Shown: positions 53,933 to 64,000 of the stretch, piece after piece
Layout of the letters: every line of letters starts with the position of its first letter
How positions within the stretch are numbered: position 1 is the stretch's first letter
Origin: Gammaproteobacteria bacterium
GTDB taxonomy: Bacteria > Pseudomonadota > Gammaproteobacteria > JAJFKG01
Length of the DNA stretch: 64,000 bases
Direction: 5' to 3'
Assembly (NCBI GenBank): GCA_965116795.1
Contig: OZ220716.1
Coordinates: 618,503 to 682,502, forward strand
Made by a program: the position numbers and the translations under genes
Notes under the pieces: generated by a model
What the model was told of the DNA's origin: nothing
The model's input: the letters and a program-made list of their open reading frames with translations, nothing else
Database searches by the model: none

Positions 53933-53998
53933 GAAAACGTTAATAAAACTGGGCGTAGCATGGCAATGACGATTGGGCAGACCAACGAGGAGTCAATA

Positions 53999-55381
53999 AT
54001 GAAACAACTTAGAATTACAACCAGGTTAAACCGTTTTGGTCTATGCATGGCCGTATTATGTGCCTTGGTAAGCCATGCTGCATGGGCAGCAACTACTAAT
54101 GCAACCGACAAAGGCATTTTCAATTCTGGTGTGTTTGACGTGGGTGCGTATGGTAATACCGAGTTTGGCTTCATCCTGCAAACTAAGCTATCTGGCTATT
54201 TAGGCGACAGCGGTCGTCAAGCAATGGCGCTGGAATTAAGTGGTGGCCCTAAAACAATGCGGGTTAATGCAACCTATGGATTAGCATTAACATCAAAGCA
54301 ACGCCTTAAATTAACCTTTGAACGCTTAGATCAAGAACTTGATTTTGACTTTGATTCTGGCAACGTAAGCCGTTGGGTCGGGCAAAATGCAGTGGGTGCC
54401 GGTTATGCATATTTATTTGATAACCCGTATATTAATGCATTTAATCTGGGTGGTTATTTCTCAAATTCGCCAAGTAGACACCTTTCTTCGAAAGATAAGC
54501 CATTTGATGATGAGACTAACACCGGTTATTTAGAACCGGAAAAACGTCATATCGCCGGTGCTAACAGTGGTAATGTGCATGCTGATCTAACCGTGACTCC
54601 ATGGCCGTACGGCCGTTTAACCGGCGGTATGGATTACGACATTGTACGCTTTGATACCAAGTATCGTGATTATGATGTCGATGGCTTAGGTGGCCACGTG
54701 AGATTAACTCAGCGTATCTTCCCACAATTAAAAGCCACCTTTGCGTCTGAGTTTCGCCAAAATCAACGTGAATACCTAGGTGAAATTGGTTGGTTGTTAC
54801 CATCACCACGTGGCACACAGTTAGAGTTGGTAGCATTATTAGATTATGTCGATAATTTAGCAACTGAACGTGACTTTTACACCAGCGGTGCACGTTTGAA
54901 TTTATCACTCAATCCAGGCGATGGCACTTATAGTGAGTTAGCTAAACAACGTCATGCTGATCTATTAACGTGGACACGTACTCCAGCAGTACGTATGTCG
55001 ACTGTGTTGGCTGTGACGGATAACAAAGTGTCGGCGTATATCCGAGGGTTGTATGTGTCAGAACTTGTTGATGGGCCTGTTGGTAGAGTTGTGCGTGGTT
55101 GGACAGTAACGGAAGCGCAAGGCTTCAATCTTAACGAAGCTATTGCGATAGATTTATTTAACTATAATAGCAATTCTGGAGAGGCAGTTATAGAGTACAT
55201 AGACTCGCCAACTGGTGGAATTCAAAATCTCAGAATCACCCGTTCGGATGTTAGAGGAGTGGTAATAGACTCTAATTCTGCGTGGGTAGCCACTAGTACA
55301 GGATTTAGGTGTGATGTGCCAGCTGTTGAAGTTGATAACGCTATAAATAGATGCCGTTTCCTCGCAGCAAAGCAGCATTAA
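53999..55381 (+). CDS. Secreted protein: conserved beta-barrel-like N-domain plus variable Cys-containing C-domain (paralog 1)
   Basis: Signal peptide; amphipathic beta strands; co-linear with 60634-62175 up to W.RTPAVRM..VLA..D; start ATG 53999 after GAGGAG. Confidence 0.65.
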   Translation: MKQLRITTRLNRFGLCMAVLCALVSHAAWAATTNATDKGIFNSGVFDVGAYGNTEFGFILQTKLSGYLGDSGRQAMALELSGGPKTMRVNATYGLALTSKQRLKLTFERLDQELDFDFDSGNVSRWVGQNAVGAGYAYLFDNPYINAFNLGGYFSNSPSRHLSSKDKPFDDETNTGYLEPEKRHIAGANSGNVHADLTVTPWPYGRLTGGMDYDIVRFDTKYRDYDVDGLGGHVRLTQRIFPQLKATFASEFRQNQREYLGEIGWLLPSPRGTQLELVALLDYVDNLATERDFYTSGARLNLSLNPGDGTYSELAKQRHADLLTWTRTPAVRMSTVLAVTDNKVSAYIRGLYVSELVDGPVGRVVRGWTVTEAQGFNLNEAIAIDLFNYNSNSGEAVIEYIDSPTGGIQNLRITRSDVRGVVIDSNSAWVATSTGFRCDVPAVEVDNAINRCRFLAAKQH

Positions 55382-55480: not shown

Positions 55481-55680
55481 CCATCATCCCAGCGGCTTGA
55501 CCCAAAGGTTTTTATACAAGTAATACACCGACCTTGCTCTCCCCAGCCATCACCTCGCGGCTTGACTCAAAGGCCTCTACGCAAGTAACGCAACTATCTC
55601 CTCCCATGGTCGTAACCACAAGTAATGCACCTATCCCCTCCCTACGGCCGTCACCCCGCGATCAAGTCGCGGGGTGACGG
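55481..55680. repeat. Degenerate tandem (~65-70 bp) REP mosaic ending in a perfect CGTC hairpin
   Basis: Repeated CCATCA.C..GCGGCTTGAC.CAAAGG and CAAGTAA..CA blocks; CCGTCACCCCGCGA-TCAAG-TCGCGGGGTGACGG at 55648-55680. Confidence 0.65.
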
Positions 55681-56198
55681 TTGTAAGAAAGCGACAGATA
55701 CTTGCATTAATAGATTTTTTGTGCAATAAGTATAGGAAATTCCTATACAGCTCTATAAGATAATCTTACATACCCATGAAAGAAATTACGCGACATCTCG
55801 AAAGCTATATTATTCAATCACTTACGTCATTTCCGGCGGTATACATTGCTGGCCCTAGGCAATCCGGCAAGACCACCCTGGTACGACATATTGCCGCCAA
55901 TCACCATCCGGCACGTTATATTACCTTTGATGATTTACAAATGCGTTCAGCAGCGGAGCACGATCCAGACGCATTTTTACGCAGTCTAACCGGTGCAGTG
56001 GTATTAGATGAAGTGTATGCTTCCAGTACCGTTGCGTGACAGCCATCAATCTGTCAATTATTCTGTGTAGGGGCAATTTATTTTTTTGATTTTGCCATTG
56101 TGCTTTTTTCCGACTTGCAATTTGAAAATAATGGGATCAGACTTGTTTCCAGGTCAGGTTATTTCTGACTGACCAATGGATGAAACAAGGATTATGTT

Positions 56199-57832
56199 GT
56201 GAAGAAACCGGAAACGATTGATTTAAGCCATGCAGAAGCAGAGTCATTACTGTCACGACTTGAAACAGGTAATCTATCAGACACCGATCGCAAGCTATGC
56301 AGCAGTGCACTACGCATGGTATTTTGGTTGCAAGGTCAATTAACCGAAGCCAAACTCAGTATCCGTCGATTGAAGAGAATATTTGGGATCTGCAGCGAAA
56401 AACAGGGGTAAAAGGTACATCAACGTCGGCAAGTTCTTCTGACAAAGTGCCAAAAGACACTGACAACGTTAAGGAAGATGATGTATCTGAGCAATCAAAC
56501 AAAGGGCATGGACGCTATAGCGCAGATGATTATGTTGCAGCAGAAGTTCACAAAGTGAGTGATGAACGTTACTACCCAGGTGCACATTGCTTACATGTTG
56601 ATTGTAAAGGCCGTTTATATTTATGGAATAAACCATCAAAAGTGATCCGTTTGTTAGGCCAACCAATGGCGCGGGTTGTACGTTATGACAGAGAGGTCTA
56701 TCGTTGCGGATTGTGTTTAACGTTATTTACAGTGCCGTTACCAAAAGAAAGCGGCAAAGATGTCTATAGCGATAGTTTCAAAGCGGTATTGGCGGTGAAT
56801 CACTATGTATTTGGTTTGCCATTTTATCGGATAGCGAAGTATCACGAAGCGCAAGGCATTCCATTACCGACATCGAATCAATTTGCGTGCATGGAGACGG
56901 TGTTTAATCACGTACTTCCTGTTTATCAAGCATTGCAACGTACTGCGGCCAACGGCGAGTTGGTCCAATACGATGACACCACAGCGAAGGTCCAAAGCCT
57001 CGTGTTAGAAAACCAGGCGCTAGAAGAAAAAGCACGTCGTGGCATATTTACAACAGCGGCACTATCAAAAGTAGGTGATAACGAAGTGGTATTAGTCTTT
57101 ACAGGTCGCTCACATGGTGGTGAGAATATCACAGCGTTATTGCGCAAACGTGATACTGAGTTAGGGTCTGTTATTTTAATGTCAGATGCGCTGAGTCGAA
57201 ACCGCATCAAAGACGAGTCGATTGCCGAACAGACGCAAGTTAGCTATTGTTTAACCCATGCCAGACGCTATTTTTTCGAGTGCAAAGACGTTTATCCGAA
57301 GGTATGTCAGCCAGTACTAAACTGGATTGGGCAAGTGTATCGACACGAGCGTCATTGTAAAACATACGGCTATACACCAGAGCAACGCCTGCATTATCAT
57401 CGTCGTCATTCGAAACCGATAATGAAACAGCTACGGCGATTTTTAGAACAATGTGTTCGAAAACGCTGGGCGGAGCCTAACAGTAGTGCTGGCAAAGCTA
57501 TCAATTATATGCGCAACCATTTTCGAGAGTTAACGTTATTTTTATCTGTTCTTGGTGCAGTGCTAGATAACAATGATTCTGAGCGTTTAATTAAGATTGC
57601 ACCCGTGATGTATCGTAAGAATTCACAACAATATCGTACCACTTATGGTGCTATGGTTGGCGACGTGTTGATGAGTGTATTATTCACGGCGCAATATGCT
57701 GGTGTTGACCCAGTGGATTATTTACAAAGTTTATTGTTGCATAAAGATGAGTTACAACAGCGTGCTAACGATTGGTTACCTTGGCATTATAAGGACACAC
57801 TCAACACCAAGGCATTAGCCAAAGCGGCCTAA
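56199..57832 (+). CDS. tnpC: IS66 transposase TnpC, split by a -1 frameshift near 56400
   Basis: ORF 56199-56411 gives the N-terminal helix ending LKRIFG..SEK; the -1 frame gives zinc-finger Cys, DDT, CLTHARRYF and LDNN.SER motifs. Confidence 0.85.
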
Positions 57833-58191
57833 GCCGCTTTGGCAGGTAGAGACTTCCAGTTTTGTTGACAATTAGCGGTAATGGGATTGCCGTTATACAG
57901 TAAGATATTCAGTGTGCTGGCAGTTAATTCAATCGTCGTGCAATTATCTTGTGGCCACCACTGAAGTCGTCCTCTGGACAGTCGTTTATGACATAGCCAG
58001 AAACCTTGGCCATCGTAGGTCAGCAGTTTGATGGCGTTACGACGACGATTGGTAAAGACAAATACCGTGCCATTAAAGGGGTCATTGTACATGTTAGCTT
58101 GGCAGACTCGACACAAACCTTCGATACCGGCTCTGAAGTCCACCGGTTCTTTGGCTAATAAAATGCGGTGTTGAGGCGTTATTTGCAACAT
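57829..58191 (-). CDS. tnpB: IS66 accessory protein TnpB
   Basis: PVDFRAGIEGL, FVFTNRRR..IKLL.YDGQGFWL..KRL..G. Confidence 0.93.
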   Translation of the reverse strand: MLQITPQHRILLAKEPVDFRAGIEGLCRVCQANMYNDPFNGTVFVFTNRRRNAIKLLTYDGQGFWLCHKRLSRGRLQWWPQDNCTTIELTASTLNILLYNGNPITANCQQNWKSLPAKAA

Positions 58192-58201
58192 CCGTTTATC
58201 C

Positions 58202-58639
58202 TCAGCACAGTGTTTTCAATAGTTGGGCTGTTGATGTGACATCCGCTAGACGAATAGCCACATGCAGACCATGTGGGTAATGGATAGTCAACTCACACGC
58301 GGCCGTTTGTATTGCGATGTTGGTTTGAGGTGCTTTGTTCTTAATTGGTTTGACGGTGACAAAGTGTGGTGTTGTTTTACTTGATACGGCTTTTTGCTCA
58401 CGCCAGCGTTTTAGTTGAGAATGATTTATTCTTAATGACTTCAGTTTTGAGAATGGTATGCCGTTATTAAAGGCGCGAACAGTTGCTTGGCGTAACGCTA
58501 GTGGCACAGGCGCATTGCTAGATTTGTTAGCCCGCCATTGTTCAAACTGTTGTTGCAATTGATCGAATGATGACGAATTTGCAATCTGTTTTTTACTACG
58601 TAAAGTTGTGCTGTGCGTTTTTGATTTCCTTGTTCCCAT
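58202..58639 (-). CDS. tnpA: IS66 accessory protein TnpA-like (HTH)
   Basis: Inside the IS, directly upstream of tnpB; F..WR...P..L, QLKRW, FV.V and C-terminal IHYPHG pattern. Confidence 0.7.
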   Translation of the reverse strand: MGTRKSKTHSTTLRSKKQIANSSSFDQLQQQFEQWRANKSSNAPVPLALRQATVRAFNNGIPFSKLKSLRINHSQLKRWREQKAVSSKTTPHFVTVKPIKNKAPQTNIAIQTAACELTIHYPHGLHVAIRLADVTSTAQLLKTLC

Positions 58640-59934
58640 TAAAATGTCCTCTTGATACTGTTAGCAACTTCAGGCTAAACCATCAAAAAACACTATGCAC
58701 GCACTTTTGCGGGAAGCATACGATGAAGTGCAATTAGTGCCAGAGATCTTCAGGCCATTAAAAATCATGATTGATCATTATCGTGGTGATGCTGATGGCG
58801 GTCGCGGAAAGTTTTTATTAACCGGTTCAGCCAGCATTATGGCATTGCCTGCATTATCAGATGCCTTAGTTGGACGCATGGCATTACATACCCTCTTACC
58901 ATTTTCTATGCGCGAAATTAGTGTGTGTGGTGCAAATGATTTTATTGAACAAGTGTTTGCGGCTGATTGGGATGTTACCCAAACTGATACCACTGATCTC
59001 AATACCATGTTAACTAGAGCATCATTTCCCGAGTTGTTATCATTAAATACAGTAGAAGCACGCCATACATGGTGTGATAGTTATTTAAATACATTGTTGC
59101 AACGCGATGTGCGCACTTTATTAGAAGTTGATAAACTCGCAGTTTTGCCCAATTTATTACGTTTAATAGCAACGCATAGCGGTAGCATATTAAATACTGC
59201 ATCGTTATCTCGTACTATTGGTTTAAATCATGTTACAACTAAAAAATATTGCCTATTACTGAATAGTTTATTTCTAACCTTATCTATACCGGCATGGTCG
59301 GTTAATCTTGGTAAGCGCTTAGTGAAATCTCCAAAGATATATTTAACAGACATCAATTTATTAGGGTATTTACTTAATATTCACCTCAATGAATTACATC
59401 AACAAAACCCGATGTTATTGGGCCAAGTCTTAGAAAATGCGGTTGCCATTGAATTAAGTAAACAAATTGCATTCTCAAAAACACGCGTGCATTTGTACCA
59501 TTACCGCACCAGTGCTGGGCAGGAAGTCGATTTTATTCTAGAAGATAGTCGTGGTCGTGTGGTTGCTATTGAAGTTAAAGCTAGCAGCAAAGTAACGGCC
59601 AATGATTTTCGGCATGTATTAACCTTAAAAGACGCATTGGGTAAACGCTTTCATCGAGGTTTTATTATTTATCAAGGCGCTGATAGCGTGGCATTTGCTA
59701 ATGACTTATTTGCTATTCCGTTTAATGCGTTGTGGGCGTGATGTATGCGGTATGCTTGAATTGGCTTTGTTGGCTGTGTGATGTTGTCACGGTTATGTAT
59801 GTCCACTCCACACTAAATTGCACTAAGTGCAACCTACTGTAGAGTAGATTGCTAGGAACTCCGATAACATCATCATGTTATGGGATTTTTTATGCTGGGG
59901 CGTTGTTCCTAAACCCCGCAAACCAAGCCTATAG

Positions 59935-60005
59935 ATCTCTACACAAGTAATGCAACTACCTCCTCCCGATGGCTATCACCCCGCGGCTTGATCGCGGGGG
60001 CCAGG
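59935..60005. repeat. Further copy of the 55481 REP mosaic unit
   Basis: CTCTACACAAGTAATGCAACTACCTCCTCCC..TATCACCCCGCGGCTTGATCGCGGGG. Confidence 0.65.
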
Positions 60006-60633: not shown

Positions 60634-62175
60634 ATGAAAACAGGCAATGCTTGTAGTAAGCAATTTATTTTCGGCACATTAATCGCAGCAACTATCATGG
60701 CAGTTGGTTTGATATCAAGCCAAGTAATCGCTGAGGTAGCAGAACAATCGGCGATCCAACCAGCACCGATCCAAGCAAATTACAGTGATACTGGCAGCCA
60801 TTTATTTAGTTCAGGCACATTAAGTACGGGTGGTTATTACGATACGACATTGGGCGCGTTTGCCGATGGTAAGTTGTCAGCCTATCTTGGTGGCAGTGAC
60901 CAACATGCTGTAGCGTTAGAATTTGTCGGTGGTGCTAACCAATACCGAGTGAATACAACGTACGGTTTTGCATTAACCGATAACCAACGAATTAAACTCA
61001 CCTACGATTATCTAACCCAATACCACAATTTTAAGTTTGATTTAGGCGACACTAATCGTTGGGTAAAACAACATGCAGTGGGTGGTGCGTACGCGTACTT
61101 GTTTGATAACCCCTACGTAGAATCGATTGAAGTAGGTGGTTACTACTCGACATCACCAAGCCAAGGCTTATCAACTCAAACTGAAACAACAGACACAACT
61201 ATCAAAACCAATGAACGTCGTATTGCCGGTGCTACCAGTTGGCATGCCTACACTGATTTAGCATTACGTTTATGGCCGCACAGTCGTTTGATCGGTGGTA
61301 TGGACTATGACTATGTCAATTTTGATACCCAGAACTCCAACACGAAAACGGTTAACGGCGTTGGTGGTCACGTACAAGTGGAACAACGTGTACTACCACA
61401 AGTTAAAGTGACTGGTATGGCACGTTTCCAACAACAACAACGCGAGTACCTGGGTTCAGTAGGTTGGTTATTGCCATCACTACACGGGATGCAATTGGAG
61501 TTAGCTGCGGTGACGGATTACATTGACAGCATTGCTACCAAACGTCATTTCTTTATTAATGGTGCACGTTTAAGTGTGGCATTAGGTACATCAAATGGTC
61601 GTTATGCTGAGTTAGATGATAACGGTAAACAAAGTCTATTAGCCTGGGTGCGTACCCCAGCTGTGCGTATGAATGATGTGTTAGCAATTGCAGATGGGAA
61701 AAGCCAGTTCCTAGATATTGATCCACAGTATGAATCAAAAACACTCATACCAGAAGCAAATCGGATTCGGTGTAGTGCTAACAAAGATGGAGACGGAAAT
61801 GTAACTAGCATTACTTGTATAAGTGATGATGGACTTTGGAAAGGAACGGTAACTGAAGTGGATTATGAGGGTTTAGATGCTCTTGTTGATGAAGAAACAG
61901 GTGAAGTGTTGGTGAATTTGAAATTCATAGAAGCAATCTACATCCCTGATGGTACAGAACATTTATTAATGGCTAAATATAAAGATCCAGGAACTCTTTT
62001 CGAAGCAACTTTAACATCGAATTCTAACAGTTATTTACAGGTTATTGATGTTGATAAAGAAAGTGATAGTAGTCTATGGACTCCTACTGATGAAGTAGAT
62101 GGCCATCTATCGTGTTCTTTTGGAGAGAATATCACTGTTGACCAATGCCAATTCCTCGTACCAGCAGGTAGTTAA
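60634..62175 (+). CDS. Secreted protein: conserved beta-barrel-like N-domain plus variable Cys-containing C-domain (paralog 2)
   Basis: Signal peptide; shares RVN.TYG.ALT..QR.KLT, AVG..YAYLFDNPY, GGMDYD, QREYLG..GWLLPS and W.RTPAVRM with paralog 1. Confidence 0.65.
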   Translation: MKTGNACSKQFIFGTLIAATIMAVGLISSQVIAEVAEQSAIQPAPIQANYSDTGSHLFSSGTLSTGGYYDTTLGAFADGKLSAYLGGSDQHAVALEFVGGANQYRVNTTYGFALTDNQRIKLTYDYLTQYHNFKFDLGDTNRWVKQHAVGGAYAYLFDNPYVESIEVGGYYSTSPSQGLSTQTETTDTTIKTNERRIAGATSWHAYTDLALRLWPHSRLIGGMDYDYVNFDTQNSNTKTVNGVGGHVQVEQRVLPQVKVTGMARFQQQQREYLGSVGWLLPSLHGMQLELAAVTDYIDSIATKRHFFINGARLSVALGTSNGRYAELDDNGKQSLLAWVRTPAVRMNDVLAIADGKSQFLDIDPQYESKTLIPEANRIRCSANKDGDGNVTSITCISDDGLWKGTVTEVDYEGLDALVDEETGEVLVNLKFIEAIYIPDGTEHLLMAKYKDPGTLFEATLTSNSNSYLQVIDVDKESDSSLWTPTDEVDGHLSCSFGENITVDQCQFLVPAGS

Positions 62176-62273: not shown

Positions 62274-64000
62274 ATGAGTCGCAAAAATAGCAAGCAATTA
62301 AATAAAGAGTTAAAGTTTCAGACAAAAAAACAGCGATTACATGGTGGCAGAAACCAATTTGGTCCTGCGAAAAAACGTGACATACAACGTATGGAGCAGC
62401 AACAATTTTTCAGCTCAACGCCTTGGAAACATACTCCACCTGCTGGAGTGACTTTGTTGTTATTGTCGATGATGGTGGGTTCAGCTGCAATCCAGGCAGG
62501 CCGAGAAATGTCAGAACGAGGGAATAGCAATTTATCATCTAGAGAACGTCGCCCTCGTCAGTTTGACTCAATGATAAGTCCTTCACCGAGCCCCTCATTG
62601 AGCCCATCGCCGAGCCCGAACTCACGAGAGTTGACATCTGAAGAACAAATCGTATTACAAAGTGTTAACGATTGTTTGGACGCTGAGCCGAGTCAAGCCA
62701 ATTATACCTCTGTTGTGTGTGATGATGCAGCTGAAAAGTGTATTGAATATATGACAGATGCTGATTCTGCGGGTGAGCTCGGTGATGTAGGTTCTACTAG
62801 TATAACTTCTACAGACATAGGTAAACTTTGTGATAGGTTTGTAGATGGCTATAATGGTAATTCGGGTTTAACGAGTCAGAGTTTAAGTTTATCACCAAGC
62901 CCGAGTGTGAGTCCGAGTCCGTCGCTGGTTCCAAGTTTGAGTCCGTCGCTGGTTCCAAGTTCGAGTCCGTCGCCGGTTCCAAGTTCGAGTCCGTCACCGG
63001 CTCCAAGTTCGAGTCCGTCACCGGTTCCAAGTTCGAGCCCATCGCCGGCTCCGAGTTCGAGCCCATCGCCGATTCCAAGTTCGAGTCCGTCACCGGCTCC
63101 AAGTTCGAGTCCGTCACCGAGCCCCTCATTGAGCCCATCGCCGATTCCAAGTTCGAGCCCGTCACCGATTCCGAGTTCGAGCCCATCGCCGAGTGTGAGT
63201 CCATCGCCGGTTCCAAATCCGAGTCCGTCGCCGGTTCCAAGTTCGAGTCCGTCACCGATTCCAAGTTCGAGCCCATCGCCGATTCCAAGTTCGAGTCCGT
63301 CGCCGGCTCCAAGTTCGAGTCCGTCGCCGAGTTCAAGTCCGAGCCCGTCACCGGCTCCGAGTTCGAGCCCGTCACCGATTCCGAGTTCGAGCCCATCGCC
63401 GAGTGTGAGTCCATCGCCGGTTCCAAGTTCGAGTCCGTCACCGGTTCCAAGTTCGAGTCCGTCGCCGGTTCCAAGTTCGAGTCCGTCGCCGGTACCAAGT
63501 TCGAGTCCGTCGCCGGTTCCGAGTATGAGTCCGTCGCCGGTTCCAAGTATGAGTCCGTCGCCGAGCCCAAGCCCAACTCCGTTATTGCCATGTATAGAAA
63601 CAGGAAAAGAGCTATCTGATCAGATGATGAGACTGACTATTGCTAGGGATCAGAAGGTTTCCGTGAACAAAGTTTGCGTCAATGGAGAAAATGGTCCAAT
63701 TACCGATGAGCAATTGGAGAAGTTCTTAACAACTTCCGAAAGACCTCAATTAGGTACATTGCTACGGTCTAACGGTGTGACTATGGTTGGTACAGTAAAT
63801 GGTCAAATAGTATATCAACCAGGTACACCCTATTTAGCAGGTAATTTTATTACAAGAGAATCGATTGGTGACAAATCCTTAGATGCAAGTGGATTGCTTT
63901 CCGTAGGTGCAGAATGGGTACGGGGGAGAACTCAACCAATAGAGGGTAGTGATTTTAGTAATGCTACCTTTTTAGGAGGGACGTTACCTGGCGGCCATAG
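62274..64000 (+). CDS. Large Ser/Pro-repeat protein, 3'-truncated by the window end (absent from the ORF track)
   Basis: Translated by hand, open from ATG 62274 to the window end: basic N-terminus, hydrophobic [16 protein letters not shown], Cys-containing segment, (SSSPSP[V/A/I]P)n, then globular sequence. Confidence 0.8.
62893..63575 (+). repeat. Coding 24-bp tandem repeat (about 27 units)
   Basis: Unit AGTTCGAGTCCGTCGCCGGTTCCA and variants; a longer block is duplicated near 63160 and 63370. Confidence 0.92.

Follow-up and report, generated by a model that had tools for sequence, protein, structure and literature searches.

The window, as we call the whole 64,000-nt stretch of gammaproteobacterial DNA analysed here, contains an insertion sequence of the IS66 family that interrupts an ATPase gene and in which the transposase gene tnpC converges on tnpB and tnpA. 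The features of the locus are as follows.

55776..56014, plus strand: 5′ part of an AAA_14/DUF4143 ATPase gene (PF13173), interrupted by the element
56007..56014, plus strand: target-site duplication, left copy, 8 bp
56015..58721, no strand: IS66-family element of 2707 bp with tnpC facing tnpB and tnpA (tnpC rightward, tnpB and tnpA leftward), supported by Pfam matches and copy comparison
56199..56411, plus strand: N-terminal part of TnpC, a 70-aa ORF out of frame with the DDE part, recognized by homology to intact TnpC
56297..57832, plus strand: DDE transposase frame of tnpC (PF03050, E 2.5e-45), C-terminus KALAKAA, stop TAA
57818..57843, no strand: palindrome; A-K-A-A is encoded by either arm together with one base of the loop, and both stop codons lie in the loop
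57829..58191, minus strand: accessory gene tnpB (IS66 Orf2, 120 aa; PF05717, E 2.3e-29), C-terminus SLPAKAA, stop TAG
58202..58639, minus strand: ORF of 145 aa, called tnpA by position only, with the same position in annotated relatives
58722..58729, plus strand: target-site duplication, right copy, 8 bp
58722..59741, plus strand: 3′ part of the AAA_14/DUF4143 gene (PF13173 and PF13635)

The two ends of the element have in common a perfect 10-bp and an imperfect, roughly 24-bp inverted repeat with the termini GTA...TAC; tnpC reads inward from one end and tnpA–tnpB from the other. IS66 elements have terminal inverted repeats starting with GTA and an 8-bp target duplication, and we take the present element to belong to the three-gene group of the family, presumably the IS679/ISEc8 type. 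It shares with that group a PF03050 TnpC, a PF05717 TnpB and a third small ORF, for which, in the place of the family's accessory HTH protein TnpA, no Pfam family scored above cut-off, as well as GTA...TAC ends, short inverted repeats, the 8-bp target duplication, a length of 2.7 kb and multiple copies. It differs in three respects: tnpC converges on tnpA–tnpB, whereas canonical elements carry tnpA, tnpB and tnpC on the same strand; the tnpC coding sequence is divided between two frames; and a single palindrome gives both TnpB and TnpC an AKAA end. The host genome holds 11 copies, nine at 98–100% identity and two at about 81%, and 8-bp target duplications flank the window copy and at least four others. 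Judging by the nine near-identical copies, the element is active. TnpB matches were found in neither of the two other genomes of the host's own order and in 7 of 60 relative genomes, all of them distant; single-protein scans returned only two loci from genome contigs and one from viral contigs. One of the nine copies (C1:2165146-2168415) is interrupted within tnpC by an insert of about 560 bp, whose 161-codon frame has, by eye, the look of an IS200-type transposase. A second, distant IS66 is present in the host in three copies (C1:1326895, 1370364, 2084741), with a TnpB 36% identical to that of the window; a 528-aa ORF adjoining one of these copies ends ILTA.

The DDE frame of tnpC is preceded by the 70-aa ORF, which matches the N-terminus of an intact TnpC (P0259) at 36% identity over 69 aa (E 4e-12). 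Joining the two would need a −1 shift near an A-run at about 56398–56402, and tnpC probably does not truly begin at 56297. The gene is split in all 11 host copies, and P0124 (71% identity) begins with the same out-of-frame peptide; the split is therefore conserved in the clade. The motif A-AAA-AAG is a classic −1 slippery pattern. The window's subtype has a run of only A5, whereas the run of the 81% subtype is A7 and follows the A-AAA-AAG pattern; subtype 2a also has GGGAG about 9 nt upstream. The split is likely a case of programmed frameshifting, which may be weaker in the commonest subtype.

The tnpC and tnpB frames meet in a perfect 11-bp inverted repeat with the loop CTAA at 57829–57832. 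An earlier note on this DNA had stated that one palindrome encodes AKAA ends for both converging proteins and that its loop contains both overlapping stops, and this is what we find: TnpC ends LAKAA and TnpB ends PAKAA, and the stops, TAA on the plus and TAG on the minus strand, overlap by 4 nt. The folding energy of the 26-mer is −20.6 kcal/mol on one strand and −21.7 kcal/mol on the other (z about −6). Arms of 11 bp at a named site have a chance probability of about 4^-11, and among 221 convergent gene pairs in the host, nine show a 4-nt overlap, with arms of 0–1 bp. At the DNA level the palindrome is not due to chance. Once AKAA is given on both proteins, however, a match at the three free third positions has p = 0.048 under host codon usage, and most of the symmetry thus follows from TnpB and TnpC having the same peptide end. 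Across the host genome, 74 sites have arms of at least 11 bp with loops of at most 8 nt, and 10 of these are the tnpC/tnpB junction in copies of the element.

The palindrome sits exactly at the tnpB/tnpC junction, where the breakpoint of an inversion that turned tnpC round must have been; the earlier note had proposed it as a possible scar of that event. We merged loci with identical TnpB and set aside host-genome and broken-tnpB loci; two of 50 distant convergent loci were dropped for a broken tnpB. The resulting set comprises 48 convergent loci (annotated Legionella and Megaera plasmids among them), 52 tandem loci (for example in Thiodictyon, Vibrio, Burkholderia and Bradyrhizobium) and 14 of undetermined layout. 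In a quick-search tree of 72 rows built on TnpB and the TnpC core (L114 and L027 excluded for their long branches), 40 convergent rows, including that of the window, lie on one side of a branch with SH-aLRT 100, and the layout changes twice overall. The convergent rows have 42–63% TnpB identity and gene overlaps between −101 and 164 nt. The palindrome occurs in none of the 48 distant convergent loci: their best perfect arms near the stops are 3–7 bp (8 bp in L108), and in the seven with the same 4-nt overlap the arms are 0–1 bp. On this comparison, the convergent layout is far older than the palindrome. Because a large, old convergent clade lacks it, the palindrome is neither an inversion scar nor a requirement of the layout; the scar interpretation is largely refuted by the sequence comparison, and we consider it very improbable. 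L108 and L079 make up a small convergent group that lies among elements of tandem layout and may stem from a second inversion, a second origin of the layout, but a single origin is not rejected (p-AU 0.378). In L108 the two proteins both end in AA, the gap is 31 nt, and a stem of 8 bp spans the tnpC stop.

Conservation of the palindrome in related elements, which the earlier note had proposed as a check, is thus divided by distance: it is absent from all 48 distant convergent loci and present in the subclade at 80–100% identity. Within that subclade we compared three subtypes and short marine contigs at the DNA level. Between subtype 2a and the window, 4 of the 26 bases differ, as many as in a coding stretch on average (mean 4.4), and every one of these changes preserves symmetry: a G-C pair is exchanged in both arms by synonymous changes, and the loop is turned round, so that TAA and TAG trade places between tnpC and tnpB. 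In subtype 2b the loop is inverted too, and the stem has a G-G mismatch. A marine variant, seen in low-depth contigs from two runs of one study, has C → T at 57819 (giving TnpC LVKAA); the palindrome was covered in only two of eight runs (X11 and X12), and two of the eight yielded nothing. P0125 (AKVA) and P0002 (AKAA), if they belong to one element, imply a further stem mismatch, their pairing being deduced only from a shared 2846 contig size. Conservation of the 26 bases does not exceed that of the remainder of the genes, with 4 and 3 differences where the means are 4.4 and 4.7. By our own arithmetic, a perfect stem would be expected to survive the divergence of subtype 2a about 1 time in 10 under protein constraint alone.

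These changes resemble the products of template switching at short inverted repeats, which include arm homogenization and spacer inversion; in yeast, spacer inversions were seen only where the arms exceeded 9 bp (both as described in the accessible part of PMC8604942). Perfect arms, symmetric changes and a flipped loop are all present between subtype 1 and subtype 2a, in an 11-bp-arm repeat within coding DNA, a signature that comes from one comparison and is imperfect in 2b. Unlike the repeats of that study, as far as its available text describes them, the arms here are the last codons of two genes, and a switch would copy the C-terminal signal of one protein onto the other. Template switching between the arms would account for the flipped loop as well as for the compensated pair, whereas selection acting on an RNA stem would explain the swapped pair and leave the loop unexplained.

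A role in RNA had been suggested by the earlier note, which took the 26 bp for a possible bidirectional hairpin. The hairpin itself might be under selection, as a pause site, 3′-end protector, processing site or bidirectional terminator, with the identical peptides following from it. The stem is stable on both strands, it is the only one of at least 8 bp in the element, one of its pairs is compensated, and of the three disruptions known, two are C-to-T changes, after which the tnpC mRNA would still have a U-G wobble at that place; L108, alone among the distant elements in having two AA-ending proteins, has its own 8-bp stem across the tnpC stop. The GC-rich stem at a convergent junction is also what a bidirectional intrinsic terminator would have, but here both coding sequences include the stem, no U-tract adjoins it on either strand, and a terminator scan made no call. 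Because the U-tract is missing and the stops are within the loop, an intrinsic terminator is unlikely; in E. coli, terminators at or just behind a stop codon were almost fully repressed by translation (PMC4824070, in the part available). Against a selected RNA element stand the lack of the palindrome in 48 of 48 distant convergent loci, including the seven with the same overlap, the G-G mismatch of subtype 2b and the breaks in other close variants, the ordinary level of conservation of the 26 bases, and an Rfam search that gave no meaningful match and one chance match elsewhere. As a terminator, the hairpin is therefore not supported; a pause site or 3′-end protector is conceivable, but the palindrome is probably unimportant as an RNA element, and we regard selection for one as improbable.

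We took TnpC relatives as 149 representatives of 50%-identity clusters, 137 of which have a readable tail after the PW motif. Of these, 47 end in AA, on tails of widely differing length. AA dipeptides inside the same tails amount to 42 of 2043 (2%), and the host background, from crude ORF ends, is 20 of 1483 (1.3%). The frequency of Ala is 0.53 and 0.44 at the last two positions and 0.10–0.18 before them. Nine of the 47 AA-ending TnpCs end in KAA, one of them independently in AKAA, and the KAA-ending proteins with identities near 40% do not form the direct sister group. In a nearer, more redundant TnpC set, 16 of 117 end in AA. Among the convergent loci, 23 of 48 have a TnpC ending in AA without the palindrome (17 among the 23 loci of one family-level group and 6 among the other 25), and among complete TnpCs of tandem layout the count is 1 of 13. 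Since 90 of 137 representatives and 12 of the 13 complete tandem TnpCs have no AA end, the tag is not essential. Elsewhere in the host genome, an IS110 transposase and two Wadjet JetD-like proteins (L151-L153) also end in AA.

In TnpB, AA ends are rarer: 12 of 120 homologues, three of which are the close clade (9 of 117 outside it), and 4 of the 48 convergent loci, where VA or LA occurs in another 11. Within the close clade, TnpB at 80% identity or more ends in AKAA in 10 of 10 cases, and the three TnpCs at 69–71% identity end in AKAA, AKVA and AKVA after variable residues; the change from AA to VA keeps an ssrA-like end and breaks a base pair. The conserved part, on these comparisons, is the protein end (AA in the TnpC group, AK(A/V)A in the close clade) and not the DNA palindrome. 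When AA, VA and LA ends are counted together in the 48 convergent loci, TnpC alone has one in 24, TnpB alone in 14, neither in nine and both in one, L108 being the only distant convergent locus with AA on both proteins. A pattern of one tag per element was considered and was not significant in a test on independent pairs that allowed for kinship. In L129-L149, tnpB reads 34–43 nt through the end of tnpC, and the antisense of the ...LAA stop gives TnpB an AAND-like internal motif, which resembles the SspB-binding start of the ssrA tag and is probably a by-product of the gene overlap.

Both tails resemble the tag that ssrA (tmRNA) adds to proteins. They share its terminal AA (E. coli ...YALAA, H. 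pylori ...YAKAA), and their last four residues are those of the H. pylori tag, which ends in AKAA (PMC2584231; also Table 1 of PMC12493166; both cited from the portions available). In contrast to the ssrA tag, they are encoded in the genes and not added by tmRNA, they are without the SspB-binding part, and they have Lys for Leu at −3. The host genome has clpX, clpP and sspB above cut-off and a tmRNA whose tag ends in AAA, so that two traits of an ssrA-like degron, a free C-terminal AA behind favourable residues (LAKAA, PAKAA) and ClpXP in the host, are present. Published data from the DEtox screen (E. coli, VapC reporter; PMC10862746, as given in the accessible text and table) bear on these tails. 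AA ends make up 91% of the top 100 tags there, and 39% of Ala-Ala 5-mers are poorly enriched. LAKAA has 18 reads, 17 of them in induced ClpXP-positive cultures (three of four replicates) and none across four clpX or clpP deletion replicates, compared with 379 for LLKAA and 282 for YALAA, counts that are prone to jackpots; PAKAA is absent from the table. Four of the five residues of LAKAA agree with the DEtox consensus, and the Pro at −5 of PAKAA falls outside it. Our analysis of these data points to LAKAA as a weak or moderate ClpXP tag for TnpC; they say nothing on TnpB. The resemblance to an ssrA/ClpXP degron on both proteins, pointed out in the earlier note, gains support from comparison and published data for TnpC and from conservation in the close clade for TnpB. 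A double ClpX-type tag is likely on this comparative evidence, and the TnpB tail could be a neutral mirror copy, given how rare AA is in TnpB outside the close clade.

We therefore favour, with a probability of about 0.58, the interpretation that the AKAA tails are an ssrA-like ClpX(P) tag on both proteins and that the symmetry of the palindrome is a by-product kept by template switching. ClpX would bind the tails of TnpC and TnpB, and ClpXP would shorten the life of both proteins and so restrain transposition, together with the split tnpC frame. Two Ala-rich tails meeting at a 4-nt stop overlap would form a near-palindrome, and template switching by a polymerase would copy one arm onto the other; the TnpC tag would be the older and the TnpB tag its mirror copy. 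Against the symmetry as a by-product, the compensated pair would also be expected from RNA-stem selection, and the argument rests on one sequence comparison.

A ClpX tag could be put to two uses: one would be to limit transposition, as the earlier note had it, and the other to disassemble the transpososome. In the latter case the tails would be handles by which ClpX dismantles the post-transposition complex, as for MuA, and they would promote transposition, the palindrome again being a by-product. ClpX dismantles Mu transpososomes via a C-terminal motif and raises CAST integration without ClpP (PMC10055298, in the part seen), and those systems, like the present one, have a DDE transposase with a C-terminal ClpX-type motif. 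Retention of the AA end across many active lineages, the apparent activity of the window's element and the recurrence of basic residues before AA (the 9 of 47 with KAA) would all suit such a role. The IS66 tails, however, are of a different motif class and family, so that for IS66 the likeness to disassembly is by analogy with MuA and CAST; 90 of 137 TnpCs do without the tail; and the AA ends of the host's IS110 transposase and JetD-like proteins fit a general turnover of risky enzymes. We consider disassembly possible and clearly less probable than the turnover tag set out above.

The kinds of components involved are already known (the IS66 family, tags of the ssrA kind, transposases acted on by ClpX, and template switching), and the element is a variant IS66 layout. 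The termini of IS66 TnpB and TnpC have been described as bearing host-interaction motifs (beta clamp) in PMC3971601, the available part of which mentions neither a convergent layout nor an AA tag. In the literature searched, to which the main IS66 reviews did not belong, there was no account of AA-ending IS66 TnpC, of the convergent clade or of a palindrome encoding two C-termini. A bolder proposal, which we hold only tentatively, is that a group of IS66 elements uses a gene-encoded ssrA-like ClpX tag to control transposition and that in one subclade the stop-centred repeat acts as a self-correcting device, with template switching keeping TnpB and TnpC co-tagged from one 26-bp sequence. IS66 transposition has been little studied, and a third of the nearest TnpC representatives end in a ClpX-type signal. 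The AA tails may offer a simple way into host-protease control of a widespread family of insertion sequences, be it as a limit or for disassembly, and the palindrome illustrates in natural, compact form how a slip of replication could carry a C-terminal signal over to a converging neighbour gene.

The sequence around the element has repeats of its own. A REP-like palindrome family with 14-bp arms, a 5-nt loop and many genome copies occurs at 55546-55682 and 59972-59999, where the palindromes are preceded by a repeated unit of about 65 nt. Two paralogous outer-membrane-like ORFs (53960-55381 and 60634-62175) flank the region, and an ORF of 260 aa on the minus strand (62809-63591) is built of repeats of about eight residues (xTDSNLEP-like).
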